Origin: Candidatus Latescibacterota bacterium
GTDB taxonomy: Bacteria > Latescibacterota > UBA2968 > GCA-2709665
Direction: 5' to 3'
Length of the DNA stretch: 64,000 nt
Assembly (NCBI GenBank): GCA_965198095.1
Contig: OZ240239.1
Span: 118,641-182,640, forward strand
Made by a program: the position numbers and the translations under genes. Below the pieces are notes generated by a model. The model saw nothing but the letters and a program-made list of their open reading frames with translations. It did no database searches and was not told where the DNA came from. Positions 41,806 to 62,712 of the stretch are shown piece by piece. How positions within the stretch are numbered: the stretch's first letter is position 1; each line of letters opens with the position of its first letter.

Positions 41806-41815
41806 TTGCTTGATC

Positions 41816-42323
41816 TTACCAATCCGGGAAAAGACACGAGAACGGCCAATCTTCTGGGGTTGCAACATATCTTTTTCTCACCGGATTTTCATGGATGTAT
41901 CCGATTTTCATGGATGTATCCGAGATGTCGAGCAAACGCCTCTTTGTTACGAAGCTTATGATCATAGAACCCGCGCTGCCAGAACCTTCCCGTCCTGCAT
42001 TGTAGTCTGTTGATTCCTCTAGCTGTATGGCTTCCGAATGAAGCCATCACGCTGGAAAGATCCTGATCCTCTCCCAAGGCCACGATCAAATGCAAGTGAT
42101 CAGGCATCAGGACGTATCCTTCACATCTGAGACGCTCATTTTCATGAAGCCAGCGCAAACACCGAACGATGAGCTCCGGCACTTCAGATTCCTCTTTCGG
42201 ATTCATTGGGTCGCGAACCAGTGGACCTGTAGTATCGTCCACGCACTTTGTTATGGAGTAGATGGATCCGGGCAAGGAATTACGCCATTTCCTCAGAGCC
42301 GATTGATGGAACCCTCTTTCCAT
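41816..42323 (-). pseudogene. REP-associated tyrosine transposase (RAYT; IS200-like Y1 HuH transposase) disrupted by a 19-bp tandem duplication
   Basis: The current ORF 41889..42323 encodes ..GYVLMPDHLHLIV.. (HuH) and ..RFWQRGFYDHKLRN..HLGYIHENRIHP, then stops. Removing one copy of the duplicated 19-mer (41881-41919, CCGGATTTTCATGGATGTAT / CCGATTTTCATGGATGTAT) restores ..YIHENPVRKRYVATPEDWPFSCLFPDW* and a 162-aa product ending at 41816. Confidence 0.7.
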
Positions 42324-42350
42324 TTTTTTACACGTATCAACCGACGGCCG

Positions 42351-42975: not shown

Positions 42976-43186
42976 AAGCAAGTATTGGGTGTGCCGTTTT
43001 GTCGTCAAAAGCCGATCGGAGACTAAGTTGTTGAATTTCACGCACCTGAAGCGAGTCTCGTCGCGGGTGTGGATCGATCTGCAAAAACCGGTCTGGGAAG
43101 ATAGGTAGGTAGGGCTTGAACGCTAAAACGTTCTTGGAGGAAGGAGACAGGATCGGTCGGCTGGCGCGCCCACTCTTGCCTCAAGG

Positions 43187-46340: not shown

Positions 46341-46358
46341 TGGGTGACCTCCCCGACG

Positions 46359-47240: not shown

Positions 47241-47265
47241 CTCTCACCTCCAAAAGATTCACGCT

Positions 47266-48330: not shown

Positions 48331-48342
48331 GAATTTCCTCCC

Positions 48343-48371
48343 GTAGAGACGCCCCTGCGGGGCGTCTCTAC
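48343..48371 (-). terminator. perfect 13-bp-stem hairpin overlapping the stop codon of the 48368 gene, immediately 5' of the Shine-Dalgarno and ATG of the 47266 gene
   Basis: GTAGAGACGCCCC tgc GGGGCGTCTCTAC, then (minus sense) GGGAGGAAATTCGTGGAAATCGAAG ATG. Confidence 0.4.
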
Positions 48372-49474
48372 CCGACGCGATGTTCTTCCAGCAATTCGTA
48401 GTTCGGTTCCATCCCCAGGCCGGGCCGATCCGGCACGGTCACATACCCATCCTTGTCCAGGACGAGCGGATCCTTGAAGATGCGGCCGCGCAACGGGTCT
48501 ACCGTTTCGCGATAGAACTCCAGAATCAGACCGTTCGAAATCGCCGCAACGAGGTGGATGTGGACCTCCTGCGCACCGTGCGGGGCGATGCGCAGATCGT
48601 GGGCGGCCGCCAGGGCGGCGACCTGCATGAACTCGGTCACGCCTCCGAGGATCTGGGCATCCGCGTTGAAGATCGCGGCGCTGTCGTGGTCGATCAGGTC
48701 GCGGAATCCATAGCGCGTGTACTCATTCTCGCCCGTGGCAATCGGAATCACCGTCGCCTGCGCAACCTGCGCGTGTCCGCGGTAGTCATCCGGCGCCACA
48801 GGCTCCTCGAACCAGAACGGATCGTAGGGCTCCATCTTGCGGGCCATGTCGATCGCCTCGTAGGCCGCGTAGGCGTTGTTGGCATCCACGAGCAGCTTGA
48901 TGTTGGGCCCGATCGTCTCCCTCACGACACGTACCCGCTCCACGTCCTCGGGGATCGACACGCCGCCCACCTTCATCTTCACCGCTTTCGCCCCCAGGTC
49001 CAGATTTTCCTCCATTTCCCGGGCCAGTTCCTTCAACCCTTTGCCCCCTTCGTAGTAGCCGCCCGCGATATAGGTCGGGATGCGGTCCGTGTAGCCGCCG
49101 AGCAGCTTGTGCACGGATTTGCCCAGAATCTTGCCCATCAGGTCCCACAACGCGATGTCGATCCCACTGATCACCTGCGTCGACATTCCGCGGCGGCCCA
49201 CGATCTTGGGTGTCCACATCCGCTCCCAGATGCGCCGATAGGCGAACGGATCCTCGCCGATCAGGGCCTGCTTGAAATGGTCGACCAGGGCGCTTGTCAC
49301 CTCGCCCGGACGACCCGCCGCGGTGCCCCCGCCCCATCCGATCCCGGTAATGCCCTCGTCCGTCGCGATTCGGATCAGGTTCAGACCGACCGTCGTGTAC
49401 GTATACTTCCCGTTCCGAATCGGTCGGGGGCGCGGCCAGGCGTAGCGCTGCACGGTCACATCGGTAATCTTCAT
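48368..49474 (-). CDS. enolase-superfamily acid-sugar dehydratase (MR/MLE family)
   Basis: 368 aa. KMKVG (KxK), DANNAY, and metal-ligand D/E/D spacing. Confidence 0.75.
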   Translation of the reverse strand: MKITDVTVQRYAWPRPRPIRNGKYTYTTVGLNLIRIATDEGITGIGWGGGTAAGRPGEVTSALVDHFKQALIGEDPFAYRRIWERMWTPKIVGRRGMSTQVISGIDIALWDLMGKILGKSVHKLLGGYTDRIPTYIAGGYYEGGKGLKELAREMEENLDLGAKAVKMKVGGVSIPEDVERVRVVRETIGPNIKLLVDANNAYAAYEAIDMARKMEPYDPFWFEEPVAPDDYRGHAQVAQATVIPIATGENEYTRYGFRDLIDHDSAAIFNADAQILGGVTEFMQVAALAAAHDLRIAPHGAQEVHIHLVAAISNGLILEFYRETVDPLRGRIFKDPLVLDKDGYVTVPDRPGLGMEPNYELLEEHRVG

Positions 49475-49575
49475 CCAAGAATCTCCTTACCGATTCTCTT
49501 CGTCAATGACGCAATCTATTGACTATCGTTTCCTTTCTCCGGGCGTTCCCGCCTCCGCCGTCATCTTTTGACTTC

Positions 49576-49616
49576 CCGGTACCCCGTGTCTTGTTCTCCC
49601 GGAACCCGGTACCCGG
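49576..49616 (-). promoter_or_regulatory. GGTACC-box variant (CCCGGTACCCCGTGTCTTGTTCTCCCGGAACCCGGTACCCGG)
   Basis: ~100 bp upstream of the enolase-superfamily dehydratase start. Has an extra GGAACC half-site. Confidence 0.45.
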
Positions 49617-49626
49617 TAGCTCGCTG

Positions 49627-50547
49627 TTACGCCACGTCACCCAAGATCTGCGCGACGACATCCAGACCCACGAGCTCGCTCCACGCCTGCTGCAGCCTGC
49701 CGCACGCCGGTCCCGGCTTTCCGTTACCGATCGCCATGTTGTTGATCCGCGTCACCGGCCTGAGGCAGAATGGGGTCGAGCTCTCAAAGGCCTCGTCCGC
49801 GTTGCAGACGTCGAACACCTGGAAGTCTCTTTCCACGAACGGAATCTCGAGTCTGTCTGCCAACTCGATCACGGTCTGCCGGCTGATCCCCGGAAGGGCG
49901 TTGCGCAGCGTCGGGGAAACGATCGTTCCCTCCTGAACGATCAGCAGGTTCCCGCCGCTGAACTCGGCCACGTTCCCATCCAGGTCCAGCATCAGCACTG
50001 CTGCCTTCGGGTCGACCATCCTCGCCTCTTTCTCCGCCAGCCAGTAATGCATTCGGCTTCGATATTTCATCTTGGGGTCGATACACTGCGGTGGCACGTG
50101 ACGGGTGGACGGCGTTACCGCGTGCACGCCGTCCCGCACCCCCTCGGTCCAGAAGTGCAGGGGCAGAGCGAAGGTGTGAACACAGACCGTCGGTGCCATC
50201 TCCTGCGTCCCGGCGGAGGTGCCGGCGTAGACCGAAAACGATCCGGCCGTGACGAAGTGGATCACGCCCAGCTCCTTTTCCTTCGGAAGCAGCGCGGCGT
50301 TGTGGTCGATCACCTTCATGGTGATGTCGATCATCTCCTTCGGGCTGATCTCTGTCTGGAAACGGGCGTAGTTCATCGACCGGTAGAGCCGGTCCACGTG
50401 CTCGCCGAGCTTGAACGGCTTCTGGTTGAACGTCCGGGTCATCTCGGTGACCGTTGCGCCCAGCACGACACCGGCGTCGTAGACCGGCAACGCAGCCTCC
50501 GCGTAGGGTATGAATTTTCCCTTCAGGTAGGCGATGGGCTCTTTCAC
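49627..50547 (-). CDS. class IV PLP-dependent aminotransferase (branched-chain / D-amino-acid aminotransferase family)
   Basis: 306 aa. Fold-type IV signatures (..EAALPVYDAGVVLGATVTE.., ..VERDFQVFDVCNADEAF..). Confidence 0.7.
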   Translation of the reverse strand: MKEPIAYLKGKFIPYAEAALPVYDAGVVLGATVTEMTRTFNQKPFKLGEHVDRLYRSMNYARFQTEISPKEMIDITMKVIDHNAALLPKEKELGVIHFVTAGSFSVYAGTSAGTQEMAPTVCVHTFALPLHFWTEGVRDGVHAVTPSTRHVPPQCIDPKMKYRSRMHYWLAEKEARMVDPKAAVLMLDLDGNVAEFSGGNLLIVQEGTIVSPTLRNALPGISRQTVIELADRLEIPFVERDFQVFDVCNADEAFESSTPFCLRPVTRINNMAIGNGKPGPACGRLQQAWSELVGLDVVAQILGDVA

Positions 50548-50782
50548 GTCCGATACCCTCCCGCGACGATCTACAAAATACAGCCGCTCATAGCCACATT
50601 ACGCGCGATTGTCCCATCTCAACATACGGAATGTTACACTCCGGCGCGACGCAAATCGGCCCTAGTGACGAATCCTCAGCCGATCGCGCTCTACGGATTC
50701 GAACCACGCCTCCCAGTCATCCTCCGAATGGCGATCCACGATCCGGTCGTCTCTTTTGGGACACGATCGACGAGCGACAGAT

Positions 50783-51553
50783 TTATCTTACGCAGCCCGG
50801 AAAGCACCGCCCCTTGACCCGAAAGTATTCAGGCCCGGGGCCTTCTCGCGTGTAGCGAGATTGGGCGCTCATGTAGGACAGGGCGCTGGCGCGGCGCCAC
50901 CGGTCGGAGCGGTTGGGCGACGTATAGTGGGGCAGCAACGAGTGAAAGAAGAGGCCCGCACCCGCAGGAATGGGGACAACCCTCAACTCGCCGAGTTCGG
51001 CCTGGATTTCATCGTCGATGACGAAATCGTCCGTCACCTGATGATGCGGGAGCGGACCCCGCTTGTGCCCTCCAGGAAGGACCTGCATACACCCGTTTTC
51101 TTCGTCGGTATCGTCAAAGGCGAACCAGCAAGAAACCAGGGCCATCGGTTCGATCGGCCAGTAGGGAGAATCCTGGTGAAACCCTTTGGCCGATCCCACG
51201 CCCGGCGGCTTGGCCAGCAGCGAATTTCGAAACATCTTGATATCAGGTCCCAAGATGCCCTCGACCTTGGAGACGATGGCGGGGTGGGTGCCAAGGCTGC
51301 GAAAGCGGTCATCCCCTTCCACGAGCCCGTCGACCTTCCGAATCCCGTCCCCCGGATGGTCGACGCCGATCTCGCCGCGGGCCACCCTGGGCTCTGTTTG
51401 GAAACGCACGTCGCCCCGGTCCCGGCCTCCGTGCGTGTACGCGCGGAACCGCTCCAGCAAACCTTCGATTTGTTCTCGAGGGAGCAGATGCTCGACAACG
51501 AAGAACCCGTCACGGTCATACGCCACGCGCTCTTTCTGTGTGAGACCCTGCAT
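50783..51553 (-). CDS. phytanoyl-CoA dioxygenase (PhyH) family oxygenase
   Basis: Start refined to MQGLTQKERVAYDRDGFFVVEHLL (AAGGAG Shine-Dalgarno). GFHQDSPYW and HSLLPH form the facial triad. ORF track 50783..51622. Confidence 0.7.
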   Translation of the reverse strand: MQGLTQKERVAYDRDGFFVVEHLLPREQIEGLLERFRAYTHGGRDRGDVRFQTEPRVARGEIGVDHPGDGIRKVDGLVEGDDRFRSLGTHPAIVSKVEGILGPDIKMFRNSLLAKPPGVGSAKGFHQDSPYWPIEPMALVSCWFAFDDTDEENGCMQVLPGGHKRGPLPHHQVTDDFVIDDEIQAELGELRVVPIPAGAGLFFHSLLPHYTSPNRSDRWRRASALSYMSAQSRYTREGPGPEYFRVKGRCFPGCVR

Positions 51554-51667
51554 TTTCACTCCTTGTATATCGCCAGTCAGAATCCACCGGCAGCAAGCTG
51601 CCGGTGCCACACCACACAACATCGATTACGAGACTATATCACCCGCGCCACGGGCACGCTCGAGGCT

Positions 51668-53275
51668 TCAAGATCCGACTCTGAAAGAATAGAGCTCAGC
51701 GTCCTTCATCACAAACCGAAGACGAATCGGCGCTCCTTCCAGTCCCTGTATCGCCCGACGCTCCTTCCACTGCACCTCGTGGTCGATCGCATCGCCTGCG
51801 AACGGAACGGCATCCTCGCGAGAGAAACCCGTGAGCGGCTCCGCGTATTCGTCCAGTACCTCCACCGCCACGCTTCCTCTCGCGGCGCGCGCATTCACGA
51901 ATACTTTCTTTCCTCTCCCCGGATCGAACGGCCGCGTCAACAGTTCTCCCCCGGCGTCCCCGGCGTTCACCGAAACAAACCCGTCCAGGCGAAGCGTGGC
52001 CAGGCCCACCGCCCCCGTGACCTCGCGGCCTTCCACGATCGTATCCCTCACGCGAGAGAGACGCTGTCCGTGGCCCCTGACCTTTCCGGAGTAATAGATC
52101 TTCAGCTCATCGCCGCGTTCGACCATGCCTGTCGGATAGATCTCCATTTCATCCCAGTCTCCGGCCTTCCCGCAGGCCATCAACAGCTGTCGGTCGCATA
52201 CCCGCGTCCAGGCGTGACCGTCCCGACTGAAGGCCAGCTGCGCGTCCATCAGCTTGTCGAGCCCCTCGGCGTCCGAAGGCCTGCCTCCGGTCTCCGGGTC
52301 GGTATTTCCGGTGTGCGTATAGTTGTAGTAGATCCACAGGAACCCGATGTAACAGTCCTCGTACTCGAAAAACGGCATGTTGTAGAACTCAATCCCCGTA
52401 TCATCCTGATCATCCGGCACGAGCACGACGTCATCCTGGGGCAGCGTCCAATGGATGAAGTCCGGACTCGTGCATCGGCCCAGGACCCGAATCCCGCGCG
52501 GCCCCCGCTCGGGGTAGACCAGCCAGGGCATCGGTCTGAAGTAGCCGACATAGGCGTTCAGCCGCGCATCCCAGATCACCCTTCCCGCGCCCAGACCCCG
52601 GTCGAGTACCGGATTTTCCGGGTGGTCGGTCCAGTGGAGCCCGTCTGGCGAGAAGGCAACCCCCACGCGCTGCGATCGGTCCCCCGTGCCGATCACCGCT
52701 TTGAACCGCTTCTGCGGATCCGCGTCGTGTGGATCATACATGGCCGGCTTGCGCGGACACAGATTCGTCTTCTCATCCGAACCGGGAAAGGGCGCCAGGC
52801 CCAAGGGCGGTTTCTCGAAGTGGACGCCGTCCGTCGATACGGCGTAACAGTGGGAATAGACGTTCAAGGGGCCACCCTTTCGCTGCCGAATGTCCAGCCC
52901 GGGCACCTCGACCGAATCGTTTCCGTGAACCCCGTCAACCTTTTCCAGATCCTCGAACCCGGGCAGAGAGTCGTGCACCTTGAAGCAGGTGTACCACAGC
53001 TTGTACAGCCCGTCGTTCTCGTCGTAGATCACCATGTGAGGCGAGGCACCCGTGCCTTCCCACGGATCTTCCGGAACCAGAATGGGATTCTCCGGGTGTT
53101 TTTCGGGCTGATGAAGCACCCGGTAGACATTATCCATCCGGCCGATCAGGTGGTCATCCAGGAAAAGCTGTCGCTTCAACCCGATCTCGATCACACGTCG
53201 CTCCTTTCGCCCCTTGACTCGAAACCCGAAACTGATGCTATCCGAACTGTTGCGGAATAATCCCCCCCGTGGCAT
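51668..53275 (-). CDS. beta-propeller glycoside-hydrolase-like protein (LF[VL]DD / LY[AS]FRV family)
   Basis: KRQLFLDDHLIGRMDNVYRV.., STDGVHFEKPPLG, SPDGLHWTDHPENP, C-terminal ..ELYSFRVGS. The start is uncertain; the longest ORF reaches 53323 and overlaps the sulfatase 3' end. Confidence 0.55.
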   Translation of the reverse strand: MPRGGLFRNSSDSISFGFRVKGRKERRVIEIGLKRQLFLDDHLIGRMDNVYRVLHQPEKHPENPILVPEDPWEGTGASPHMVIYDENDGLYKLWYTCFKVHDSLPGFEDLEKVDGVHGNDSVEVPGLDIRQRKGGPLNVYSHCYAVSTDGVHFEKPPLGLAPFPGSDEKTNLCPRKPAMYDPHDADPQKRFKAVIGTGDRSQRVGVAFSPDGLHWTDHPENPVLDRGLGAGRVIWDARLNAYVGYFRPMPWLVYPERGPRGIRVLGRCTSPDFIHWTLPQDDVVLVPDDQDDTGIEFYNMPFFEYEDCYIGFLWIYYNYTHTGNTDPETGGRPSDAEGLDKLMDAQLAFSRDGHAWTRVCDRQLLMACGKAGDWDEMEIYPTGMVERGDELKIYYSGKVRGHGQRLSRVRDTIVEGREVTGAVGLATLRLDGFVSVNAGDAGGELLTRPFDPGRGKKVFVNARAARGSVAVEVLDEYAEPLTGFSREDAVPFAGDAIDHEVQWKERRAIQGLEGAPIRLRFVMKDAELYSFRVGS

Positions 53276-54773
53276 CGGGCACGACGGAGAGCCAGCGTGC
53301 ATCGTAAAGGGCGCCCTCGGCATCGAAGACCCGTCCGTCGGGAAGCATGTACTGGTTCGGCGTCGTCGGCTTCTGTCCGGATTGGAATTCCGACGACCGG
53401 GCCCTGTCCGCGGCCATCTGCTGGTGGACCCGCTCCCAGCTGAATCCCTCGAAAAGGGCCTCGCGCATCTTCCGACATCGGGTGGCTTGATGGGGGCTTT
53501 CGGCCAGGTTCGTCTCCTCGTCCGGGTCGTTCACCATATCGAACAGCAGCCGGTCTCCCTTCTCGATATCCACGTACTTCCAGTCCCGGCTCCTCACGAC
53601 ACGCATGGCAGCCGCCGCTTCCTGCTTCGCCGTCTGTTTGTAGTTGATCCTCACGCCATAGTGACAATAGCCCGCGGTCACGTACTCCCGGGGCGCTTCC
53701 GCATCCTCAGGGTCCGCCAGCAGGCCGCTGAAGTCCTTTCCGTCCAGCCCTTCCGGAATCGGAAGACCGGCCAGACCGCAGGTCGTCGGATACAGGTCGA
53801 TGAGCGAAATCGGGTGCGGAACCGGGTGATGTCCTTCCCGTATTCCGGGGCCGCGGATCAGAAGCGGGACCCCGATCGAAGGATCGTAGTAGTTGCCCTT
53901 ACCCCAGAGACCGTGCAGGCCGGCCATCTCTCCGTGATCACTCGTGTAGATGACGACCGTATTCTCCAGCAGGCCGGCATCGCCCACACCCTTCAGGAGT
54001 TCGCCGATGCAGTCATCCGCGAAATCCACGCAGGCGTAGTAGCCTTCCCGTCCGCGCCGGGTTTCCTCAGGCGTAAACTCACGCCAGAGACGTCGCGCGA
54101 AAGGCTCCAGCTTCTCCGCAAAGCCGGAGGGCGGATCGATCGGCGGCAGTCGGTCTCGGTAATACCGGATGTAGCGACCCGGGGCCGTAAAGGGACTGTG
54201 AGGCCGGGAATAGGAGGCACACACGAACCAGGGCGTCTCCGGCTCGCGGCTCTGGTGCTCGAGCAAGAGGGCGATTGTCTCCCTCGTGACGACCACGTCC
54301 TGCAGAAGACTCTCGGGGATCTCGGTGATCCCCCCGCTTGTGGCCGAATGATACGAGGGAAACAGGTCGATCGGCTCGGGCTGATGGCTCAAGCCGTGCC
54401 GAAGATCGCCGTAGGGCCGGACCTGGAATCCCTGCATCTGGTCTCGACCGCCGAAGTGCATCTTGCCGACCAGGCCGGTGCGATACCCGTGCGCCGCGAA
54501 GTGGGCCGGCCAGGTTACGTGCTCGGGAAAAATGATCCAATGGTTGCTCCACGCCGCGCATCGGAAATCATCTTTGCCCGTGAGCAGGCACATCCTCGAG
54601 GGGGTGCAGACCGGCGACGCGCAGAAGGCGTTGTCGAACTGGACCGACCGGCCGGCCAGGTCGTCCAGATGCTGCGTGCGGACGTGCTCATCTCCCGAAA
54701 ACCCGGCTACCTTGGGCGCGTGTTCGTCGGTGAGGATAAGGAGAATGTTCGGTTTGTTTGAGTTTCCGCTCAT
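53238..54773 (-). CDS. sulfatase (S1 formylglycine-dependent family), no signal peptide
   Basis: 511 aa. ILLILTDEH and the C-x-P-x-R formylglycine motif in CASPVCTPSRMCLLTG. GKMHFGG. Confidence 0.85.
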   Translation of the reverse strand: MSGNSNKPNILLILTDEHAPKVAGFSGDEHVRTQHLDDLAGRSVQFDNAFCASPVCTPSRMCLLTGKDDFRCAAWSNHWIIFPEHVTWPAHFAAHGYRTGLVGKMHFGGRDQMQGFQVRPYGDLRHGLSHQPEPIDLFPSYHSATSGGITEIPESLLQDVVVTRETIALLLEHQSREPETPWFVCASYSRPHSPFTAPGRYIRYYRDRLPPIDPPSGFAEKLEPFARRLWREFTPEETRRGREGYYACVDFADDCIGELLKGVGDAGLLENTVVIYTSDHGEMAGLHGLWGKGNYYDPSIGVPLLIRGPGIREGHHPVPHPISLIDLYPTTCGLAGLPIPEGLDGKDFSGLLADPEDAEAPREYVTAGYCHYGVRINYKQTAKQEAAAAMRVVRSRDWKYVDIEKGDRLLFDMVNDPDEETNLAESPHQATRCRKMREALFEGFSWERVHQQMAADRARSSEFQSGQKPTTPNQYMLPDGRVFDAEGALYDARWLSVVPDATGGIIPQQFG

Positions 54774-54902
54774 ATGACGACCTCGCCTTCAAAGACTGGA
54801 TACGAACAACCCGAGAAGCGCGATCCCGGTCGCGGCCAGCACACCCAGAATCAGCGGCCGACAATGTCAGTAACGCGACTGGCGATGCGGCCCTGCATAA
54901 GC

Positions 54903-55111
54903 TCACTCCTTCTCGCTCAGTTTCCGAACAACGCCTCGTCCGTTCTCAAATAGCGCCCTGCTGCATCCTCGTTGAGATCGATTTCCAATCCCGGTGTCTC
55001 CGGCACCTCCCTCCCTGGCCTGAGTGTTCGTGGGCCGCGAAAGGTAGAGCATGAAGCTTCCGTCGTTGTTGTAGAAAAACCGGGGCGGCTTCGCCATGCC
55101 TCCCTTTCCAT
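54903..55111 (-). pseudogene. remnant of the 5' end of a GHL-family gene (N-terminal ~20 codons only)
   Basis: Minus-strand ATG at 55111 encodes MAKPPRFFYNNDGSFMLYLS, then diverges into unrelated sequence. The nucleotide stretch ~55040-55111 is homologous to the 5' ends of the 17702 and 19949 genes. Confidence 0.55.
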
Positions 55112-55152
55112 TCGGTGATGAGAACGCCGTGATACGTAGCTCTTTCATCAGC

Positions 55153-55193
55153 AGAAAGACGCCGGCGGACAGGGTCGTTACCGGCGTCTTTCT
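55153..55193 (-). terminator. 13-bp-stem hairpin immediately after the stop of the 55215 gene
   Basis: AGAAAGACGCCGG cggacagggtcgtta CCGGCGTCTTTCT. Confidence 0.45.
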
Positions 55194-55214
55194 GAACAGC
55201 TGGCTTCCGCTGCG

Positions 55215-55952
55215 CTATTTCTTCACTGAAAGGTCGATCATCCTGAACGCATAATCGGCCGGATATCGTGTAATATGGGTTCCCGGATCTTCGTAGTCCA
55301 GGCCTCCGCCGCGAATGACCACCTTGTAAGCGGTGTGCTCCGGACGTGTCGTGTCGCCGATTCTGAAGGTGGTCGTGTTTTCGTAGAGCCCGCTTATGAA
55401 ACTGCCTGGCACGTTGCACCCAGCCGTCATGTTGTAGAAGATGTTCTGAATTCGTTGGATGTGGTTTCGCGCCTCTTCAACCGTCTCGAAATCCGGGATC
55501 GCCTGAGTCAGCGCACTCTGGACAAAGGCATTGTGCTGCCCTTGCAGGTTGCCCACCCGCTGGCGCTTGATCAACTGCCCGGCGTGGGTCCGTCTCACCG
55601 TTTTGAGGCTTTCGCCCGGCCCCCACCAGTCCACCGTGTTGTAGTTGCTTCCAGAGCAGCCCGATCCGACGATCATAACCGAAACGATCGGTTTTTCTTC
55701 CTCAATCGTGATAGACCCGACCTCTCCCTCGATTTCCATCCCTTTGTGGTTGTATTCCAGCCAGTTTTCCACCTTCACATTCCTGTAATGAAACGGAAAC
55801 GTGTAGACGTGATGTTCCGTCTCGAACACTTCCACCTCCTGCAAGTCACCCATCTTGTCCGCGTCAGCTTCCGAGGAATAGCGGGCCAGGTTCTCTGAGA
55901 CCAGCGTGTAGTTGGGACTCCCATCTTCTCTTTCGTTCACCCAGTTCATGCT
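55215..55952 (-). CDS. hypothetical protein, lower GC than surroundings
   Basis: Likely start MNWVNEREDGSPNYTL.. within ORF 55215..56048. No recognisable motifs. Local GC is ~53% against ~63% for the window. Has its own terminator hairpin. Confidence 0.4.
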   Translation of the reverse strand, partial: SMNWVNEREDGSPNYTLVSENLARYSSEADADKMGDLQEVEVFETEHHVYTFPFHYRNVKVENWLEYNHKGMEIEGEVGSITIEEEKPIVSVMIVGSGCSGSNYNTVDWWGPGESLKTVRRTHAGQLIKRQRVGNLQGQHNAFVQSALTQAIPDFETVEEARNHIQRIQNIFYNMTAGCNVPGSFISGLYENTTTFRIGDTTRPEHTAYKVVIRGGGLDYEDPGTHITRYPADYAFRMIDLSVKK

Positions 55953-56094
55953 GTCGCTCCTCTGTCTTCGGGTTGGAACAACGACCGAGTCTTTCTCGAA
56001 TGGTTCTCGTAAGATAGTATTGATGCTTCGAGGCGGGCCAAAAGTCAATCAGAATCCGAATTGATGGCACACTTTGGGTGACGATTCCACCGAT

Positions 56095-56985
56095 TCAACT
56101 CAGACACGCCTCGAGATATTCACGAGCCCGGTTGACCTCCACCGCCACCTCTGCTATGGGTTCCCGAATCGGAATCCCACGCGGCGCAGGATGCATGAAC
56201 ACCTCGGTCCAGCCCGCATATTCGATCTCCTTCAAGGCCGAAACAATCGGAGCGAAATCGAGCGGCCCACGGCCCGGCATCTGCAGCAAGATCTCCTCCG
56301 GCTTCAGCGCCCCGTGACTCCCTTTCCCGTGCTGCCAGGCATAGAAGAGAAACAGCTTGTCGTCGAGGTCGCGGATGAGCTGAGCGACCCGCTCAGGATC
56401 GTCCGGCAGATGATAGGGTGCGAGGGCAATGCCCAGGGGTCTCGACCCGGCGAACTCGGCCAGCCACCGCATCGAGTCGAGCGAGTCGACGATCCAGCTG
56501 GCGTGGTTCTCGATCCCGATCCGGACGCCGAGCGCCTCTGCCAGGTCCAACTGAGGCTGCTGGCGCGCCACAAACTGCTTTACGGCGCGCCTTAAGTCTT
56601 CGCCCTCCAGGTCGGCCGGTCCCCCGCTTCCGCAGACGACAAGCTCGGCATCGAATGCCCTCAAGAAACGGATCTCGTCGTCAAGACCGAAAGGGCCCAG
56701 GTCAAACCGGGTAGAGACGCCCAGCTTGACGCCGTGCGTTTCCAGCATCTCCAAAAATGCATCGTGGCCCATGGCTTCGGCCTGCTCCCGCTGGTTCCCG
56801 TGTACGCGAGGCCAAATGTCCAGATGTTTCGCCCCGACCTTTGGAACCTCGGGAAGGACCCGCGCGAGAGGGGTCGTGCCGTACAGCGAGGACGCGAGCA
56901 GATACCGGAATTGGAAGGGCGGGTCACAACCCATCTTTTTTCCCGTCGAATCGCCGGCGGTGAGGGTCAAACAGAAGGGCGGCAC
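56095..56985 (-). CDS. sugar phosphate isomerase/epimerase (xylose-isomerase-like TIM barrel)
   Basis: ..LGVRIGIENHASW.. and HLDIWP... The start may instead be the internal MGCDPPFQF (56934). Confidence 0.65.
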   Translation of the reverse strand: MPPFCLTLTAGDSTGKKMGCDPPFQFRYLLASSLYGTTPLARVLPEVPKVGAKHLDIWPRVHGNQREQAEAMGHDAFLEMLETHGVKLGVSTRFDLGPFGLDDEIRFLRAFDAELVVCGSGGPADLEGEDLRRAVKQFVARQQPQLDLAEALGVRIGIENHASWIVDSLDSMRWLAEFAGSRPLGIALAPYHLPDDPERVAQLIRDLDDKLFLFYAWQHGKGSHGALKPEEILLQMPGRGPLDFAPIVSALKEIEYAGWTEVFMHPAPRGIPIREPIAEVAVEVNRAREYLEACLS

Positions 56986-57036
56986 GCGCGCCGCCCTTGA
57001 ACGGATCTTTGAACGAAATCGTGTTCGAGTCCCGCG

Positions 57037-57747
57037 TCAACCGGGCGCCGCCGGATATTCGCCGCACAGATAGCGGGTTCTTGCGACGTCCTCGTCCAGC
57101 TCGGGAAACCGGGTCATCGGTTCAAGAAAAAAATTGTCTGCCAGGTCATCGCAGACGCTGCTGACTTCCCCGCTCACGGTGTATTGCACGCCATCGACTT
57201 CGAGGCCGGTGCCCTCTTCGCCCCAGAACTGGTGAATGGTCCGCGCAGGAAGGCAGACGCTTCGGCCGGGCTCCAGGCAGACCCGGTCTCCCGGATTCAA
57301 CGCAACCGTCTGACCGTCTACCTGCAACGTAAAGGGTTCGTCCGATCGCTTCCCGTCGTCCGTCGCCTTGCAGACCTCCACGAGGATATTGCCGCCGCTC
57401 CGGTTGATGATATCCTCCCGCTTCGAAAGGTGGAAATGTGCCGGGGCGCGCTGGTTTTCAGGGTCCAGAATGAGTTTTTCCGCATAGGTCTTCGGATAGT
57501 TCGCGTTCTTGGCCGACCCGTTCCGGAGCGTCAGCAGCGTCCGACCGATTTCCTTGAACCGCCCGCTTCCGAAATCGGTCACGTCCCAGCCCAACATGCA
57601 GTCGCGAATCTCGTCGGCTTCGGGACCCTTCTTCTGCCAGTCCTCCACGTTCCAGAACGCGAACGGCGGCAGATGAAACCCGAAGTGTTGGAAGACCTGT
57701 ATCGCGGTCTCGACAGATCGCTCTATTTCAGACCGCTTTAATAGCAT
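57037..57747 (-). CDS. D-lyxose/D-mannose ketol-isomerase family (cupin)
   Basis: 236 aa. MLLKRSEIERSVETAIQVFQHFGFHLPPFAFW.., HFHLSKREDIINRSGGNIL. These match the D-lyxose isomerase family. Confidence 0.7.
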   Translation of the reverse strand: MLLKRSEIERSVETAIQVFQHFGFHLPPFAFWNVEDWQKKGPEADEIRDCMLGWDVTDFGSGRFKEIGRTLLTLRNGSAKNANYPKTYAEKLILDPENQRAPAHFHLSKREDIINRSGGNILVEVCKATDDGKRSDEPFTLQVDGQTVALNPGDRVCLEPGRSVCLPARTIHQFWGEEGTGLEVDGVQYTVSGEVSSVCDDLADNFFLEPMTRFPELDEDVARTRYLCGEYPAAPG

Positions 57748-57764
57748 TCTCTACCTCCATCGCT

Positions 57765-59270
57765 CTAGCTTTCTTTCGTCTCTCGCCTTTTAACGATCTC
57801 CGACCACGGAACGCCCTTTTCGATGTCCCTGATTTCCCGGGAGAAGGCCTCGTGGTGATAACCCGGCACGGAGGCGAACCTCACCCCTTCGGGCAGCGCT
57901 CCGTGCAGCAGCGGCGGACAAGACCGGTAGCGCAAGAGGTCCATCAGCAGGGCCTCCCGAATCTCCCGGTAGTCGGGGTCGTGCCACCTGTTGTAAATCT
58001 CTCCCGGATCCGTCCGGTGGTCGTAGATCTCGCTCTCGTCCCCTGTCAAATCGAAGGTGATGCGGAAGTCTTCTGTCCGCATCGACATGTGGTGATAGTC
58101 CTTCACGTGTTCGCATAGGACCGCCCGTTTGTTCCACTCCTCCTTGCCCAGAATCGCTGGGACGAGGCTCCGTCCCTGAACCGTGTTCGGCGTCTCAAGG
58201 CCGAGCAGTTCAGTTAGCGTCGGATAGAGATCCACAGACTCCACGAACTTGCCGAACTCCTCTCCCGAAGGCAGCCCACTCGGGTAGCGAATAATCAGGG
58301 GAACCTTGTGAACGCATTCGTAAAACCCGAGGTTCTTCCAGATCAGTCCGTGCTCACCCGCGAAGTCTCCGTGGTCGGAGGCGTAGATGACGATCGTATC
58401 TTCCAGGATGCCCTGGGCCTCCAGCTCCGCAAGCATCCTTCCGATCTGCTCATCGATCAGGGTGACGAGCGCGTAGTAGTAAGCGATACACTGTCTCAGG
58501 TGCGCGTCGTCCCTCGGCCGGTAGGGGTACCAGAGTTCGCCACGCATCGACTGCTGTTGCCGCTCTGACTTGCCCTCAAACGGGTCTTCGGCATTCGCAG
58601 GGACCGTTACCTCATCCGGATCGTAGAGGCGGTCATACGGCTCGGGCACGGTGAGCGGATCGTGAGGCCGTTCGAAACAGACGTAGGCGAAGAACGGCTT
58701 GCCTTTGTCTCGCTCGCGGAGGTATTTCACTGCCTCGTCTCCGCACCAGACCTCCATCGAGTGTTCCAGTGGCAAGGGCGACGTGACCGCGCAGTCGGGG
58801 TGCTGCTTCCATTTGCTCGTATTGTCGTAATCGTCCGCCACCCCTGCGTCAACCAGGCTTCGGAAGTAGTCGCACGTGAGCGGGTCGTCCGGCAGCGCAT
58901 CGGTGTTCGTGCTGAAACAGGTAGTGTCGAACTCTCGTCGGGGCCAGTGCACCCCGATATGTCCCTTTCCGATGAGCGCCGTCTCGTATCCGGCCTGCCT
59001 CAGGGTCGCCGTGATCGGATTCAGGTGGTCTGGCGGCTCATCGATGTTGCCGTGACGCCGATGCCAGTGTTCGTAGATCCCGGTCAGGTAAGAGATGCGC
59101 GATGGGCCGCAGTGCGCGCTGTTGGCGTAGGCCCTGGCGAATCGAATGCCCTCCCGCGCGAGCCGGTCCATGTGGGGCGTCTGGAGCAGAGGCTCGCCCG
59201 CGCAGGACATACAGCGCGCATTATGCTGGTCGCTCAGTACAAAGAGGATGTTGGGCTGTCCGGAAGCCAT
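57765..59270 (-). CDS. sulfatase (S1 formylglycine-dependent family), no signal peptide
   Basis: 501 aa. ILFVLSDQH and C-x-P-x-R in SAHCGPSRISYLTG. ..IVIYASDHGD.. Confidence 0.85.
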   Translation of the reverse strand: MASGQPNILFVLSDQHNARCMSCAGEPLLQTPHMDRLAREGIRFARAYANSAHCGPSRISYLTGIYEHWHRRHGNIDEPPDHLNPITATLRQAGYETALIGKGHIGVHWPRREFDTTCFSTNTDALPDDPLTCDYFRSLVDAGVADDYDNTSKWKQHPDCAVTSPLPLEHSMEVWCGDEAVKYLRERDKGKPFFAYVCFERPHDPLTVPEPYDRLYDPDEVTVPANAEDPFEGKSERQQQSMRGELWYPYRPRDDAHLRQCIAYYYALVTLIDEQIGRMLAELEAQGILEDTIVIYASDHGDFAGEHGLIWKNLGFYECVHKVPLIIRYPSGLPSGEEFGKFVESVDLYPTLTELLGLETPNTVQGRSLVPAILGKEEWNKRAVLCEHVKDYHHMSMRTEDFRITFDLTGDESEIYDHRTDPGEIYNRWHDPDYREIREALLMDLLRYRSCPPLLHGALPEGVRFASVPGYHHEAFSREIRDIEKGVPWSEIVKRRETKES

Positions 59271-59355
59271 GTTCGATAAAATCTCGCAGATGACACGGAG
59301 AGACGACCGATTCCATTACTAAGGAATCAGGTTTCACTGTCAAGCAGTAATTCGA

Positions 59356-59805
59356 TCATCGCTCGACTTGGACCCTCCTTGACGTGCCTTTTCTCGGAGT
59401 GACACGGACGACGCCCCGGTCCGCATCCACCACCACCCGATCCCCCGTCGCGATGGTCGAAAACGGGTCACGCTCCAGGTCCGTCATCATCGGGATGCCG
59501 TTCACGATGCACCCGAGGGCGGCCAGGCTGTCGACCTCCACGTTCACGAACGCCACCGGGGCATTTCCTTCCAGCCGGGCCAGGTTCAGCGTCATCGGCG
59601 TCCCGGAAGATCCCTTGGTCGAGCGGATCACGAGCACCCGATCCCTCAGTGATTCACCCTCCAGCGGATGTCCGGAGCCGATCACTTTCCCGGTAATCGC
59701 ATCCACCTCGCCCCAGAAAGAGAGCGTGGCGTCCGCCACCAGCGCCGTCCCCTCGGCCCTTCCCATCACCACCCCTCTGCCCTTGATTTCGATCGTCTCA
59801 GCCAT
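59356..59805 (-). CDS. aconitase X swivel-domain small subunit (DUF126 / AcnX type IIa small subunit)
   Basis: Start MAETIEIKGRGVV.. Typical DUF126 length and Gly-rich pattern. 8-bp overlap with the upstream AcnX large-subunit gene. ORF track 59356..59826. Confidence 0.6.
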   Translation of the reverse strand: MAETIEIKGRGVVMGRAEGTALVADATLSFWGEVDAITGKVIGSGHPLEGESLRDRVLVIRSTKGSSGTPMTLNLARLEGNAPVAFVNVEVDSLAALGCIVNGIPMMTDLERDPFSTIATGDRVVVDADRGVVRVTPRKGTSRRVQVER

Positions 59806-61051
59806 CTCCCATCCACTTCCCGGCAACGGCCGCCCGAATGCACGGTTCGGTCTCCGCGATAATCATTTCTGCCCCCAGCATCCCCCGGGCATAATGCGCC
59901 TGTTTGAACCCGTGGGTTACGATGCGCTTGGCCGGGATCCGCATGTTCGTTGGGCAAGTGTCGCACAGGATCCGGCCGCCCGCAGCCTCGATCGCCTCCG
60001 TGTATCCCATCGCGTCCGCGTTCCCCTTGGTTCCCCGGGCCGTATCCACCCAGAGCCTCACCCCCTGGGCGATCTTTTTCCCCCTCAGTAGGCCAGCAAT
60101 CTCAGAAATTTCCTGGATAGACGCGTGAGGACAGCCAAGGATCACGGCGTCGATTTCGTCTCCGGTGTGGGTCCGAAGCGATTCATAGGTCTCCCTCAAG
60201 GCGGCATCGTCAAACACCGTCTCGGGCTCGGGCACATCGCCCTGAAACGCGGCCTCCAGTGTGGGAGCCTCGGGCGTCACGCCCGCGATGTGACACATCG
60301 TCACGCCCCCTGACGTCGCGAGCGCGGCGCACAGCTGCTTCGCCTCATCCTGTGACGGGCGTTCCACGCCGTTGAACACCGGAATACCCAAACCAGCCAA
60401 CTTTCCCGAATAGTAACCGAGCGCCCCCCAGTCCGTCGGGCTGTCCAGGTCTGCGGTCACGTCGATCCGCAGCGTCCCCTTCCGGTTCTCGTCCAGTAGG
60501 ACACCGAACTCGGGTACCAGTCCTAGAAGCGACGCCGCGATCGCGCTCTCCGTCCCGTGCCGCACGGTTCTCGCCCCCAGGATCGAGTTGGCGTAGACCA
60601 CCGCTGAAGACTCGGTCCAGGCGCAGACCTCCCCCTTCAGCGGAACGTTTCCGACGAGATACGGCGCGCACGTGAACGTCGGGATGAATCCGGCCTCAGC
60701 CGCCATGTCTGCCAGTTCCTTCTGCATCCGCACCTGCTCCGGATCGTTTTCAGGCACATCCTGATGGCCCTCCAGTGTGACGAAAGCGGCGTGGACTGTG
60801 CAGGTGCATCCCGGGTGCGTCTGGTGCGCGCAGGCCTCCTTCAGATCTTCCATATACCGGTCGAGTGTTTCCCGGGAAGCCCCTCTGGCCATCAGGTTGG
60901 GAACCGGCAGCAGCGCGTGCGTGTTCTCCACGCGCACCAGCCGCTGCGCACCCATCGCCTCGCCCCACGCGACCAGCCAGCGCATGCACTTGGCCAGGTA
61001 GTCGCCCTTGGCGCCGTCCAGAATGGCCTGCTGTTCTTCAGTAAGATCCAT
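59798..61051 (-). CDS. aconitase X catalytic large subunit (DUF521 / AcnX type IIa large subunit; hydroxyproline- or mevalonate-phosphate-dehydratase-like)
   Basis: 417 aa. The N-terminal MDLTEEQQAILDGAKG.. and Cys-rich regions are typical of DUF521. Paired with a DUF126 gene. Confidence 0.6.
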   Translation of the reverse strand: MDLTEEQQAILDGAKGDYLAKCMRWLVAWGEAMGAQRLVRVENTHALLPVPNLMARGASRETLDRYMEDLKEACAHQTHPGCTCTVHAAFVTLEGHQDVPENDPEQVRMQKELADMAAEAGFIPTFTCAPYLVGNVPLKGEVCAWTESSAVVYANSILGARTVRHGTESAIAASLLGLVPEFGVLLDENRKGTLRIDVTADLDSPTDWGALGYYSGKLAGLGIPVFNGVERPSQDEAKQLCAALATSGGVTMCHIAGVTPEAPTLEAAFQGDVPEPETVFDDAALRETYESLRTHTGDEIDAVILGCPHASIQEISEIAGLLRGKKIAQGVRLWVDTARGTKGNADAMGYTEAIEAAGGRILCDTCPTNMRIPAKRIVTHGFKQAHYARGMLGAEMIIAETEPCIRAAVAGKWMGDG

Positions 61052-61191: not shown

Positions 61192-62712
61192 TTACTGTTT
61201 AGGAATCTGCAACGCATAAAGCTTCGCGTTGTCCATGGTAAAACGAACTCTGACCGGGAGATGCGCTCCGATATCCGAGTTTCCCCTCCACGTGAACGTA
61301 TGCGCCAGGCTGTCCCCCTTGAAGGTATCACAGTCCTCTCTGGAAAAGCCATCAACAACGTATCCATCCGAGGTTAGAAGTTCGGCGTCAATATAACCTC
61401 CGGACGCAACGGCGTTGACGACAAGTCGATTGCCCGGCGATTGAAGCGGTTTCGTCAACAGTGTAGGCGGGTAATTATTCTTGGTGCTTCTGTGCGAATT
61501 GTCGATCGCGTCGATGGAGACGAATCCGTCCAGCCGCAGCTTGGCCAGCCCGAGCTTTGTGTTACCACCCGCGTCGTGGCGGTTGTCCGTCCCGGTATAG
61601 TAAACCCAGTGCTCATCCCCGACCCGCATCGGGGCCTGTAACATTGCGCACATGCCCCACTCCCAGCTTCCATCCGGACCGAGGGGCAGAAAAGGCCCGG
61701 TTCTCAGCCGTTCCCAGTGGAAACTGTCCCTGCTGTGCGAAAGGTACATATCCATCGTGTCGTGCGCCGTGTGATGTGTCCTCACGAAGCCGAGGTAGAT
61801 GCTCTCGTAGTAGAACGCCTCCATGCCGTAGAAGTCCGTATCGAACGGATCCAGCGCGTCCTTGTCGATCACGGGCGCAGACATCGACCAGTGGATCAGG
61901 TCGTTGCTCTGCATCCTCTGGATCGATCGCTCCGTCCTGTGCACCAGCATCGGACTTGGATAGGGATTTCGACAAAATCCAAGGTACTTCTTGCTCACGG
62001 GATCATACATGATACTAAGCGTCTCGTCTCCTCGCCCGGCACTGATCGGCCCCGGGTCCGGCGTCCAGTGGATCCCGTCGGGGGAATGGAAGACCGCCGG
62101 CTGTCCTCCTCCGTGACCCATCTTGTAGCGTCTGGACGGATCGGCCTCAGGATCCTTCACGACGTATTGACACTTGGTCTCGTAAACGATGTTCGTGTCG
62201 CTGCCATCGGTGTGTTTCACCACGCCCAGCGGCGGCGTTTCCCACTTGATGCCGTCCTCCGAGGTGGCATACAGGATCCTATAGTTATAGCTTCGCACGG
62301 GCACACCTTCTACCGTCAGGCCGTTGTACCACATCTTCCAGATCCCGTCTTCTTCGTCGTAGAGGATCCTTGCCGGCCACGGCGCAGACCTGCCCTCCCA
62401 GTCGTGCGACCGCTGCATGATCGGATTGCCTTCGTACCGCACGGGCTGATTCACCGTCCGCGTCACGAAGGCGGTCGCCCTGAGCAGATGCCCTGGTACG
62501 TCCGCTTCGATCTTGTCGGTTGCCTCGCTCCATCCGTCCAGGTTCGTTCGCTCCTCGGCTGACGCCGGTATCCGCGGCTGTACCCATCGGGCCGTCTCCG
62601 CGAGACGAGGAGAAATCCAGCGCGTCGTCTCGATAATGTGGTCGTCCACAAAAAGCTGCTTGCGTGTACCGACATCAACGATCAGTTCTGATCCTGGAAC
62701 CTGTAACCTCAT
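61192..62712 (-). CDS. beta-propeller glycoside-hydrolase-like protein (LF[VL]DD / LY[AS]FRV family)
   Basis: 506 aa. MRLQVPGSELIVDVGTRKQLFVDDHIIE.., SEDGIKWETPPLG, SPDGIHWTPDPGP, SRDSFHWERLRTGP, C-terminal ..AKLYALQIPKQ. No signal peptide. Confidence 0.6.
   Translation of the reverse strand: MRLQVPGSELIVDVGTRKQLFVDDHIIETTRWISPRLAETARWVQPRIPASAEERTNLDGWSEATDKIEADVPGHLLRATAFVTRTVNQPVRYEGNPIMQRSHDWEGRSAPWPARILYDEEDGIWKMWYNGLTVEGVPVRSYNYRILYATSEDGIKWETPPLGVVKHTDGSDTNIVYETKCQYVVKDPEADPSRRYKMGHGGGQPAVFHSPDGIHWTPDPGPISAGRGDETLSIMYDPVSKKYLGFCRNPYPSPMLVHRTERSIQRMQSNDLIHWSMSAPVIDKDALDPFDTDFYGMEAFYYESIYLGFVRTHHTAHDTMDMYLSHSRDSFHWERLRTGPFLPLGPDGSWEWGMCAMLQAPMRVGDEHWVYYTGTDNRHDAGGNTKLGLAKLRLDGFVSIDAIDNSHRSTKNNYPPTLLTKPLQSPGNRLVVNAVASGGYIDAELLTSDGYVVDGFSREDCDTFKGDSLAHTFTWRGNSDIGAHLPVRVRFTMDNAKLYALQIPKQ

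Follow-up and report, generated by a model that had tools for sequence, protein, structure and literature searches.

Leaderless sulfatases, PhyH dioxygenases and glycosidase-like enzymes in a catabolic gene island of an uncultured Latescibacterota bacterium

Carbohydrate sulfatases characterised so far are, to our knowledge, nearly all exported enzymes of Bacteroidota loci. A 64-kb stretch of DNA from Candidatus Latescibacterota (contig OZ240239.1; ~61% G+C), called the window here and always meaning the whole stretch, raises the question of where in the cell its two sulfatases work, and on what. The window belongs to a long run of catabolic genes on a single strand, an island devoted to sugar breakdown in an uncultured marine-type Latescibacterota bacterium, and nearly all of its genes are on the minus strand; annotation was based on Pfam and NCBIfam scans of its 44 open reading frames (ORFs). 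Two sulfatases, three PhyH dioxygenases and at least 12 glycosidase-like enzymes are predicted to be cytoplasmic, because no export signal was found in any of them. The best reading of this arrangement, which we hold to be, on balance, probable, is that imported glycan fragments with acidic sugars are desulfated inside the cell. This would represent the opposite layout in a little-known phylum, with import first and both the acidic sugar and the sulfate removed in the cytoplasm. The two sulfatase genes are:

53238-54773, minus strand: sulfatase 1, a leaderless Cys-type S1 sulfatase of 511 amino acids (aa), in a choline-sulfatase-like clade without the choline cage
57765-59270, minus strand: sulfatase 2, a leaderless Cys-type S1 sulfatase of 501 aa

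Hidden upstream starts that would add a leader were ruled out for both proteins. Sulfatase 1 begins MSGNSNKPNILLILTDEH, with a TGA six codons upstream and no intervening ATG, GTG or TTG, and sulfatase 2 begins MASGQPNILFVLSDQH, with a stop 16 codons upstream and no alternative start between. The Pfam Sulfatase domain (PF00884, cut-off 25 bits) starts at residue 8 in sulfatase 1 (146.4 bits) and at residue 6 in sulfatase 2 (167 bits), the matches covering profile positions 1-300 of 301. Both keep the maturation motif (C/S)xPxRxxxLTG, as CTPSRMCLLTG and CGPSRISYLTG respectively, together with SDHG and either GKMH (sulfatase 1) or GKGH (sulfatase 2), and the metal-binding and catalytic set is intact, with D16, C56, R60, N77, K104, H192, D279, H280 and K292 lining up with the choline-O-sulfatase BetC. 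An earlier note, made from the DNA letters alone, had described both S1 sulfatases as lacking signal peptides, with upstream in-frame starts as the feature that could overturn this; neither gene has one, and the description stands.

The same note had presented cytoplasmic sulfatases as unusual, and here it went too far. The sulfatase 1 family has more than 2000 members at E <= 1e-20, and its top 120 are 61-99% identical and 495-525 aa long, with the metal-binding motif starting at residue 5-19 wherever the motif search located it (99 of these 120); judged by sequence, all 120 are leaderless. Sulfatase 2 is more isolated, its best identity beyond its own cluster being 42-46% in an exhaustive search of 1.84 billion cluster representatives, and the majority of its 150 nearest representatives are leaderless too: in the nearest single-domain relatives the catalytic domain mostly begins no more than ~15 residues from the N-terminus, and a minority carry Sec or Tat leaders. 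Since the closest members of the sulfatase 1 family and most relatives of sulfatase 2 share this pattern, leaderless S1 sulfatases are common in sequence data, though few are characterised. A precedent also exists in Bifidobacterium breve UCC2003, whose N-acetylglucosamine (GlcNAc)-6-sulfate cluster takes up the sulfated sugar and desulfates it inside the cell (PMC7326374).

The lack of export signals extends well beyond the sulfatases. A Kyte-Doolittle hydrophobicity (KD) scan in which each of the 44 proteins was taken as its longest possible ORF found a signal-peptide-like N-terminus in only four of them, which are contiguous at 24842-33414 (KD 2.56-2.81), while the remaining 40 had KD <= 1.96. 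The leaderless proteins, as the earlier note had also proposed, include the glycoside hydrolase (GH) family 127 protein, two GH36 proteins, a sialidase-like BNR protein, five proteins of the type first labelled GHL and three beta-propellers, none with room for a leader. These last 12 or more genes, in which the five GHL-type proteins are counted as GH156-like and the propellers as GH32/GH130-like, are the following:

17702-19255 and 19949-21517, minus strand: two GH156-like proteins, leaderless homologues of the inverting sialidase EnvSia156 (PDB 6rzd)
7705-9288 and 9310-10887, minus strand: two GH156-like proteins with the same residue set conserved
1-1205, minus strand: fifth GH156-like protein, its C-terminus cut by the window edge; Pfam GHL10 at 28 bits, GH156 residues kept
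11039-13087 and 13313-15337, minus strand: two leaderless GH36 proteins; Pfam Melibiase at 93-94 bits
44409-46340, minus strand: leaderless GH127 protein; three GH127 Pfam domains at 189, 94 and 64 bits, stop 7 codons upstream
47266-48330, minus strand: leaderless BNR_2 sialidase-like protein, a six-bladed propeller; Pfam BNR_2 at 75 bits
51668-53197, minus strand: leaderless propeller protein of 508 aa, a five-bladed beta-propeller with a C-terminal beta-sandwich, resembling glycoside hydrolases and phosphorylases and unclassified
61192-62712, minus strand: leaderless propeller paralogue of 506 aa, 35% identical to the 508-aa protein
62794-63993, minus strand: third propeller paralogue, its ORF within 7 nt of the window end, so that the N-terminus may extend beyond

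The GH156-like set says most about the likely substrate. The best of the five matches to EnvSia156 has E 5.8e-23 (84.7 bits, residues 86-366); the proteins at 7705-9288 and 9310-10887 share 63% identity with each other and 24-27% with the other pair. In EnvSia156 the general base is Asp14 and the acid His134, the substrate carboxylate is held by the triad Arg129, Arg202 and Asn346, and Arg246 and Asp132 also contribute to the site (PMC6811678). All seven positions, including the Asp14 equivalent, are kept in each of the five paralogues, and an N-terminal xxDG-S...Y motif has a spacing identical to that of Asp14, Ser16 and Tyr20. These proteins are most likely GH156-like enzymes that bind a 2-keto-3-deoxy acid sugar, going by their conserved residues, and the hint of sialic acid in the earlier note is strengthened accordingly by the retained catalytic pair and triad.

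Less can be said about the propellers, which are predicted to share a GH32/GH130-like fold. The gene after sulfatase 1 encodes 508 aa, starting near 53197, and not 551 aa; its product has no Pfam match and no significant PDB sequence match. Its AlphaFold2 (AF2) model, with a predicted local distance difference test score (pLDDT) of 91.3, resembles in Foldseek a GH32 endo-levanase, GH130 mannoside phosphorylases, GH43 and GH117 at 10-16% identity, and some homologues have weak GH32N or GH130 matches. The third paralogue shares the MWY...YATSxDGIxWE motif of the propeller alignment consensus. As for the BNR protein, its best PDB match (5hx0) is uncharacterised.

Exported proteins are confined to one block:

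24842-33414, minus strand: exported block of a TonB-dependent-transporter-like protein and three signal-peptide proteins, the only exported proteins of the window
28315-31422, minus strand: TonB-dependent-transporter-like protein, 1035 aa; Pfam CarboxypepD_reg at 72 bits

The transporter matches the SusC/RagA model with its N-terminus only (58 bits vs a cut-off of 368), and the Pfam scans of the window gave no match to the SusD family. With this partial SusC match, no SusD match and enzymes without signal peptides, the island differs from a classical SusC/SusD polysaccharide utilisation locus (PUL). Two signal-peptide proteins lie downstream of the transporter, one of 801 aa (25929-28334) with a weak CHU_C or type IX secretion system (T9SS)-type C-terminal match and one of 348 aa (24842-25888) with weak FadL/PorV-like matches; they may be surface-binding or outer-membrane partners standing in for SusD.

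These observations lead us to a scheme in which glycan fragments bearing sulfate esters as well as acidic sugars of the 2-keto-3-deoxy type (sialic acid, Kdn or a relative among the ulosonic acids) would cross the outer membrane through the TonB-type transporter and the inner membrane by way of a permease whose gene lies elsewhere in the genome. Inside the cell, exo-acting enzymes would then dismantle the fragments, with the sulfatases desulfating small oligosaccharides or monosaccharides, and the freed sugars would pass to a mannose/lyxose-isomerase-type cupin, a TIM-barrel isomerase, acid-sugar dehydratases and keto-deoxy-acid aldolases. The PhyH enzymes would hydroxylate pathway intermediates, be they a sugar or an amino compound. 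The formylglycine-generating activity that the sulfatases need would be encoded outside the window: the Pfam scans of the window ORFs gave no FGE-sulfatase, Radical_SAM or SPASM match, bearing out the earlier remark that the window has neither a formylglycine-generating enzyme (FGE) nor an anaerobic sulfatase-maturing enzyme (anSME) gene, and a maturase was likewise not found by Pfam in the related-genome loci that we examined, including L006.

The genes that would take the freed sugars further, and those that lie among them, are:

57037-57747, minus strand: D-lyxose/D-mannose isomerase-family cupin; Pfam Lyx_isomer at 271.7 bits, full length
56095-56985, minus strand: xylose-isomerase-like TIM barrel of the sugar isomerase/epimerase/dehydratase class; Pfam AP_endonuc_2 at 55 bits
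55215-55949, minus strand: conserved 244-aa hypothetical protein, encoded between sulfatase 1 and the TIM-barrel isomerase
46359-47240, minus strand: HpcH/HpaI-type 2-keto-3-deoxy-acid aldolase; Pfam HpcH_HpaI at 55.8 bits
48368-49474, minus strand: enolase-superfamily protein, acid-sugar-dehydratase-like; Pfam MR_MLE_N and MR_MLE_C
49627-50547, minus strand: class IV aminotransferase, immediately downstream of the third PhyH gene; Pfam Aminotran_4 at 126 bits
59356-61051, minus strand: two-subunit AcnX-family dehydratase, small subunit 59356-59826 and large subunit 59798-61051; AcnX at 407.6 and AcnX_swivel at 86.7 bits

From general knowledge of these families, cleavage of a Kdn-type sugar to pyruvate and mannose, followed by isomerisation of the mannose, would fit this gene set. 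Precise functions are harder to assign: the best NCBIfam models of the enolase-superfamily enzyme, talarate/galactarate and arabinonate dehydratase, are sub-threshold at 242-247 bits, the aminotransferase is sub-threshold for both the branched-chain and the D-amino-acid transaminase models, and AcnX reaches 247 bits vs a cut-off of 700 for the cis-3-hydroxy-L-proline dehydratase equivalog. The 244-aa protein has no Pfam or NCBIfam match; it is 84% identical to its orthologue in a sister genome (locus L005, described below) and is likewise called as 244 aa in a second relative (L020). Further along, the block at 36548-41604 holds a thiamine pyrophosphate (TPP) enzyme, a short-chain dehydrogenase/reductase (SDR), an FAH-family hydrolase whose best NCBIfam model is 2,4-didehydro-3-deoxy-L-rhamnonate hydrolase (sub-threshold), a 3-hydroxyacyl-CoA dehydrogenase and a cyclase, and resembles non-phosphorylative deoxy-sugar acid catabolism.

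What the dioxygenases act on is the part of the scheme with the strongest competitor. The three genes are:

15596-16783, minus strand: PhyH1, divergent; Pfam PhyH (PF05721) at 35.7 bits, H122-R-D124 plus distal His, C-terminal extension of ~170 aa
35358-36296, minus strand: PhyH2, divergent; Pfam PhyH at 72.2 bits, H105-P-D107 plus distal His
50783-51553, minus strand: PhyH3, an Fe(II)/2-oxoglutarate (2OG) dioxygenase of 256 aa; Pfam PhyH at 126.6 bits, H126-Q-D128

All score above the Pfam cut-off of 22 bits, and each has, beside HxD, a distal His and an Arg at the 2OG-binding position; in the PhyH3 family alignment H126, D128, H209 and R220 are invariant, and the start of PhyH3 at 51553 is backed by orthologues. 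Their mutual identity is below 25-30% over short segments (BLASTP E >= 3e-4), and this near-absence of similarity rules out recent duplication, leaving three separate subfamilies. The earlier note had seen a PhyH gene recurring through the island: the three genes are real and their iron-binding motifs intact, but they are unrelated subfamilies rather than one recurring paralogue. A PDB sequence search gave no significant match for PhyH1 or PhyH2. For PhyH3 the AF2 model (pLDDT 92.4) is a double-stranded beta-helix with a template-modelling (TM) score of 0.77-0.80 to human PhyH (2a1x) and PHYHD1 (2opw), to the proline hydroxylase H11 and to SnoN.

A rival view is that the PhyH enzymes, or at least PhyH3, hydroxylate free amino acids or amines, forming an amino-compound branch with the aminotransferase, AcnX, the enolase-superfamily enzymes and the M19 dipeptidase; we regard it as a serious contender that falls somewhat short of probable. 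The Foldseek matches of PhyH3 are split about equally among human PhyH, PHYHD1, ThoJ, the sugar-modifying SnoN and SnoK, and the amino-acid or amine enzymes trans-3/4-proline hydroxylase H11, leucine hydroxylase GriE and ectoine hydroxylase EctD, and a sequence match to EvdO2 adds to the sugar side. Identity to any characterised member is at most 26%, so the substrate cannot be transferred from one of them, and no NCBIfam model for an amino-acid hydroxylase is matched by PhyH3 at equivalog level, which tells against the rival. Gene neighbourhoods are similarly divided. The PhyH3 family extends to Armatimonadetes, Chloroflexi, Gemmatimonadetes, Planctomycetota and others at 62-68% identity, and a conserved-neighbourhood analysis of eight loci found no universal partner gene; homologues adjoin GH106 with an SDR, a sugar-type ABC transporter or a nearby GH127, and in one case a sulfatase, all of which speak for carbohydrate. 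That last case, in an unrelated 7.4-Mb genome, is a run of PhyH, DegT aminotransferase, sulfatase and acetyltransferase, so that an aminotransferase lies directly downstream of PhyH3 both there and in the window, and hydroxyproline dehydratases do occur in AcnX and among some members of the MR/MLE family.

Aminotransferases of three fold classes (class IV, DegT and class III) were seen next to PhyH3 homologues or leaderless sulfatases (window 49627-50547; L026 7001-13050; L006 4075-5397), and this recurrence may indicate an aminated substrate. Since the aminotransferase recurs and amino-acid hydroxylases are among the structural neighbours, an amino compound stays plausible; for PhyH3 itself the association with carbohydrate is recurrent and an amino compound equally plausible. 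The oxidative step on a sugar that the earlier note had suspected is thus backed by the recurrent carbohydrate neighbours, while the structural matches and the adjoining aminotransferase leave an amino compound level with it.

A second alternative concerns the sulfatases. Sulfatase 1, and possibly sulfatase 2, could hydrolyse a small non-glycan sulfate ester, osmolyte-like or a secondary metabolite, that is imported as a solute, as in BetC or the cytoplasmic arylsulfatases, with the glycosidase setting being incidental; we consider this unlikely, though it deserves attention. The best PDB and NCBIfam relatives point in its direction, being choline sulfatase, the arylsulfatase PRK13759 and phosphonate monoester hydrolases. 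Specifically, sulfatase 1 has the choline-O-sulfatase BetC (6fny) as its best PDB match (182 bits, residues 5-429) and the choline sulfatase TIGR03417 as its best NCBIfam model, at 255 bits vs an equivalog cut-off of 433.45, and therefore below it. For sulfatase 2 the best NCBIfam model is PRK13759 (258 bits vs a cut-off of 481), with TIGR03417 at 201 bits (cut-off 433.45), but its best solved match is a glycan enzyme, the GlcNAc-6-sulfatase BT4656 (5g2v, S1_11; 199 bits in two stretches).

The pocket of sulfatase 1 argues against choline more directly. Choline is recognised by Trp129 and His145, in a GW-x13-WYHN hairpin, and by Glu386 (PMC5870055, PMC9063841). When BetC, sulfatase 1 and 119 other members of the family are aligned with MAFFT, the catalytic residues are all conserved, while the choline clamp is replaced: Trp129 by His and His145 by Pro (each in 119 of 119), and Tyr123 by Arg, Lys or His (117 of 119; Arg in sulfatase 1). 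Glu386 becomes Ser or Ala by MAFFT, an HMMER pairwise alignment placing Arg at that position. Identity as a choline sulfatase is ruled out by these replaced determinants together with the sub-cut-off score. Because its pocket appears more basic than that of BetC, we infer that the leaving group of sulfatase 1 is probably anionic or polyhydroxylated and not cationic. The earlier note had named membership of a subfamily acting on small aryl or alkyl sulfates as the outcome that would count against glycans, and the answer is divided: the nearest characterised relative is indeed a small-molecule choline-O-sulfatase, yet the residues that bind choline are gone.

The distribution of the family can be read in both directions as well. 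It spans Latescibacterota, Acidobacteriota, Planctomycetota, Lentisphaeria, Spirochaetaceae, Kiritimatiellia, Verrucomicrobiota and Chloroflexi, and identities of 61-78% over at least eight phyla are what a common small substrate would lead one to expect, as is a sulfatase 1 neighbourhood that is not conserved beyond Latescibacterota; a conserved-neighbourhood analysis of 19 loci found no universal partner gene. Within the phylum the picture changes, since two of the three paralogue loci on a Latescibacterota chromosome are of glycan type, and they and one further contig are glycosidase and sulfatase clusters, against the small-ester explanation. One of the two is the locus syntenic with the window; the other groups its paralogue with three further sulfatases, a GH29 fucosidase and a GH156-like gene, alongside a GntR regulator and a TonB-type transporter. 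On the further contig, a 78%-identical homologue has as neighbours two sulfatases, two BNR proteins, a propeller and a GHL10-like gene that is possibly GH156-like. The third paralogue on the chromosome has a Peptidase_M19 and MR/MLE-like pair directly upstream (L003 7409-11515), and a similar pair is found at the left end of the window (1955-4091).

The neighbours of the sulfatase 1 homologues in Acidobacteriota include TPR proteins, a 2-hydroxyacid dehydrogenase and a small gene with an FGE domain (PF03781). This FGE-sulfatase-domain gene, of 167 aa and ~3 kb from the homologue (L001 6486-6989, with equivalents in L007-L012), may encode a dedicated maturase or part of one.

Returning to intracellular desulfation of imported acidic-sugar fragments, several observations weigh against it. 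The GH156-like proteins are only ~25% identical to EnvSia156, and they vary at Tyr135 and at the +1 subsite positions Trp164, Phe203 and Phe278, which implies that the ulosonic acid and the linkage may differ from those of EnvSia156. The closest characterised relative of sulfatase 1 acts on a small non-glycan ester, and outside Latescibacterota most of its homologues sit among unrelated genes and not in glycan loci. The island is not purely a glycan locus, since it also encodes amino-acid-type enzymes (the M19 dipeptidase, a protein resembling serine hydroxymethyltransferase (SHMT), the class IV aminotransferase and the AcnX dehydratase). Finally, no ORF with three or more predicted transmembrane segments was found in six frames of the 64 kb, meaning that no inner-membrane permease is encoded there. 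The earlier proposal of uptake followed by intracellular desulfation is thus borne out as regards cytoplasmic sulfatases and glycosidases, whereas the uptake of sulfated oligosaccharides into the cytoplasm is something we infer, given that the window has no inner-membrane transporter.

A more specific version of this reading, which we put forward as speculative and rather doubtful, is that the sulfatase 1 family comprises cytoplasmic sulfatases whose substrates are sulfated ulosonic acids, such as sialic acid or Kdn with an 8-O- or 9-O-sulfate, acting after release by the GH156-like or BNR enzymes, and possibly joined by an oxidative PhyH step on the modified sugar, for example O-demethylation or oxidation at the aminated carbon. 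Sulfated ulosonic sugars, including Kdn8S and Kdn9S, are analytically established (PMC13634767), and a 2023 review states that no microbial sulfatase has been reported for sulfated sialic or ulosonic acids (PMC10017367). If these were indeed the substrates, a recognised gap would be filled; otherwise the result is an ordinary, if useful, annotation of a catabolic island.

It is quite improbable, in our judgement, that the island serves to recycle re-imported sulfated or acidic glycans from the cell's own surface, with no external foraging. This would agree with hydrolases that are all cytoplasmic and with a window in which no secreted depolymerase was recognised, but a TonB-type outer-membrane importer and secreted accessory proteins belong to the same run of genes on one strand, the enzyme set is large and rich in paralogues, like those of nutrient-acquisition loci, and the Pfam scans of the window revealed no glycan-biosynthesis genes nearby. 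Least credible of all is that the leaderless appearance is an artefact of mis-set starts or of export by an unrecognised route, since, although non-classical secretion is compatible with the sequence, each protein was taken at its maximum ORF length and upstream stops are nearby, the pattern recurs in ~15 separate enzymes, in orthologues from two other assemblies and in the 120 closest sulfatase 1 family members, and the exported proteins of the same window show obvious signal peptides.

Relatives of the island place these genes in a wider setting. In earlier genomic work, Latescibacterota were predicted to degrade algal glycans with the help of sulfatases, and anSME genes were noted, without discussion of where the enzymes are located (PMC4454575); a preprint on Planctomycetota CAZymes likewise gives no data on sulfatase localisation. 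Look-ups of the exact sequences of sulfatase 1 and of the 506-aa propeller returned no match. The region 44410-60347 of the window is syntenic with a Candidatus Latescibacterota metagenome-assembled genome (MAG) chromosome, OZ252100.1 (locus L005), at 80-93% nucleotide identity, and the same gene order is found on the 804-kb ENA contig_6 (L020), with individual proteins 84-99% identical to those of the window. Kinship is mosaic within 44409-61051: identity to L020 is 98-99% for sulfatase 1, PhyH3, the isomerases and the aminotransferase, but only 84-91% for GH127, BNR and HpcH, which are nearer to L005 (86-96%). This mosaic suggests recombination between strains, as read from the protein identities.

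In the sister genome (L005 6769-9987, vs window 54773-55215) a DapA/NanA-like aldolase, a CysK equivalog (411 bits vs a cut-off of 351) and a YeiH-family putative sulfate exporter, whose family match is sub-threshold (128 vs 233), lie directly upstream of the sulfatase 1 orthologue, and an extra BNR gene is present at L005 3617-4771. All four are absent from the window and from L020. The insertion of CysK, YeiH-family and aldolase genes supports a release of sulfate that would take place in the cytoplasm.

Mobile and repeated sequences were also seen in the window. A palindromic unit resembling repetitive extragenic palindromic (REP) elements, with the core GGTAGGAGCCGCCTCCCGGCGGCGAA and its complement, forms dense arrays at 41600-43200 and 33300-34300. 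The former flank an IS200-like Y1 transposase of the RAYT type (41889-42323, Pfam Y1_Tnp), and the latter fill a 1-kb gap at 33.3-34.3 kb with the same palindrome family; at the matching position the near-identical L020 has a DDE_3 transposase in place of the window element. A promoter and terminator scan of the window gave counts near the shuffle expectation and was uninformative.

Compared with known systems, the island combines familiar parts in a different place. Like the PULs of Bacteroidota, exemplified by BT4656 (S1_11, 5g2v), it unites a TonB-dependent importer with glycosidases and sulfatases, but where those loci have periplasmic sulfatases the sulfatases and glycosidases of the window have no signal peptides, and no SusD-like protein was recognised. 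Pseudomonas aeruginosa AtsA is a cytoplasmic S1 arylsulfatase that acts on imported sulfate esters with the AtsRBC ABC importer and serves to scavenge sulfur from aromatic esters; in contrast, the window has no linked permease and is an island of glycosidases for carbon catabolism. The cluster of B. breve, a Gram-positive gut bacterium, has its own transporter and anSME maturase. The logic of uptake followed by desulfation that we propose is the same as in strain UCC2003, whereas the window has neither permease nor maturase and its sulfatases lie among ~12 cytoplasmic glycosidase-like genes.

At the level of single enzymes, sulfatase 1 is like BetC/SmCS (S1_12; 6fny, 6g5z) in being ~510 aa long, without a signal peptide and with conserved catalytic residues, and unlike it in having neither the choline clamp nor Glu386, which makes a cationic leaving group unlikely. 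The five GH156-like proteins keep the catalytic and carboxylate-binding residues of EnvSia156, but are leaderless, unlike many GH156 members, which carry signal peptides (PMC6254351). The dioxygenases share the HxD...H triad and the 2OG-binding Arg of the PhyH family, as well as, in PhyH3, its fold. Three groups are of interest in their own right: the large sulfatase 1 clade, the divergent GH156-like set and the GH32/GH130-like propeller family. The cytoplasmic sulfatase layout is real and under-studied, and set beside these systems it is a variation on known biology and not a new type of system.

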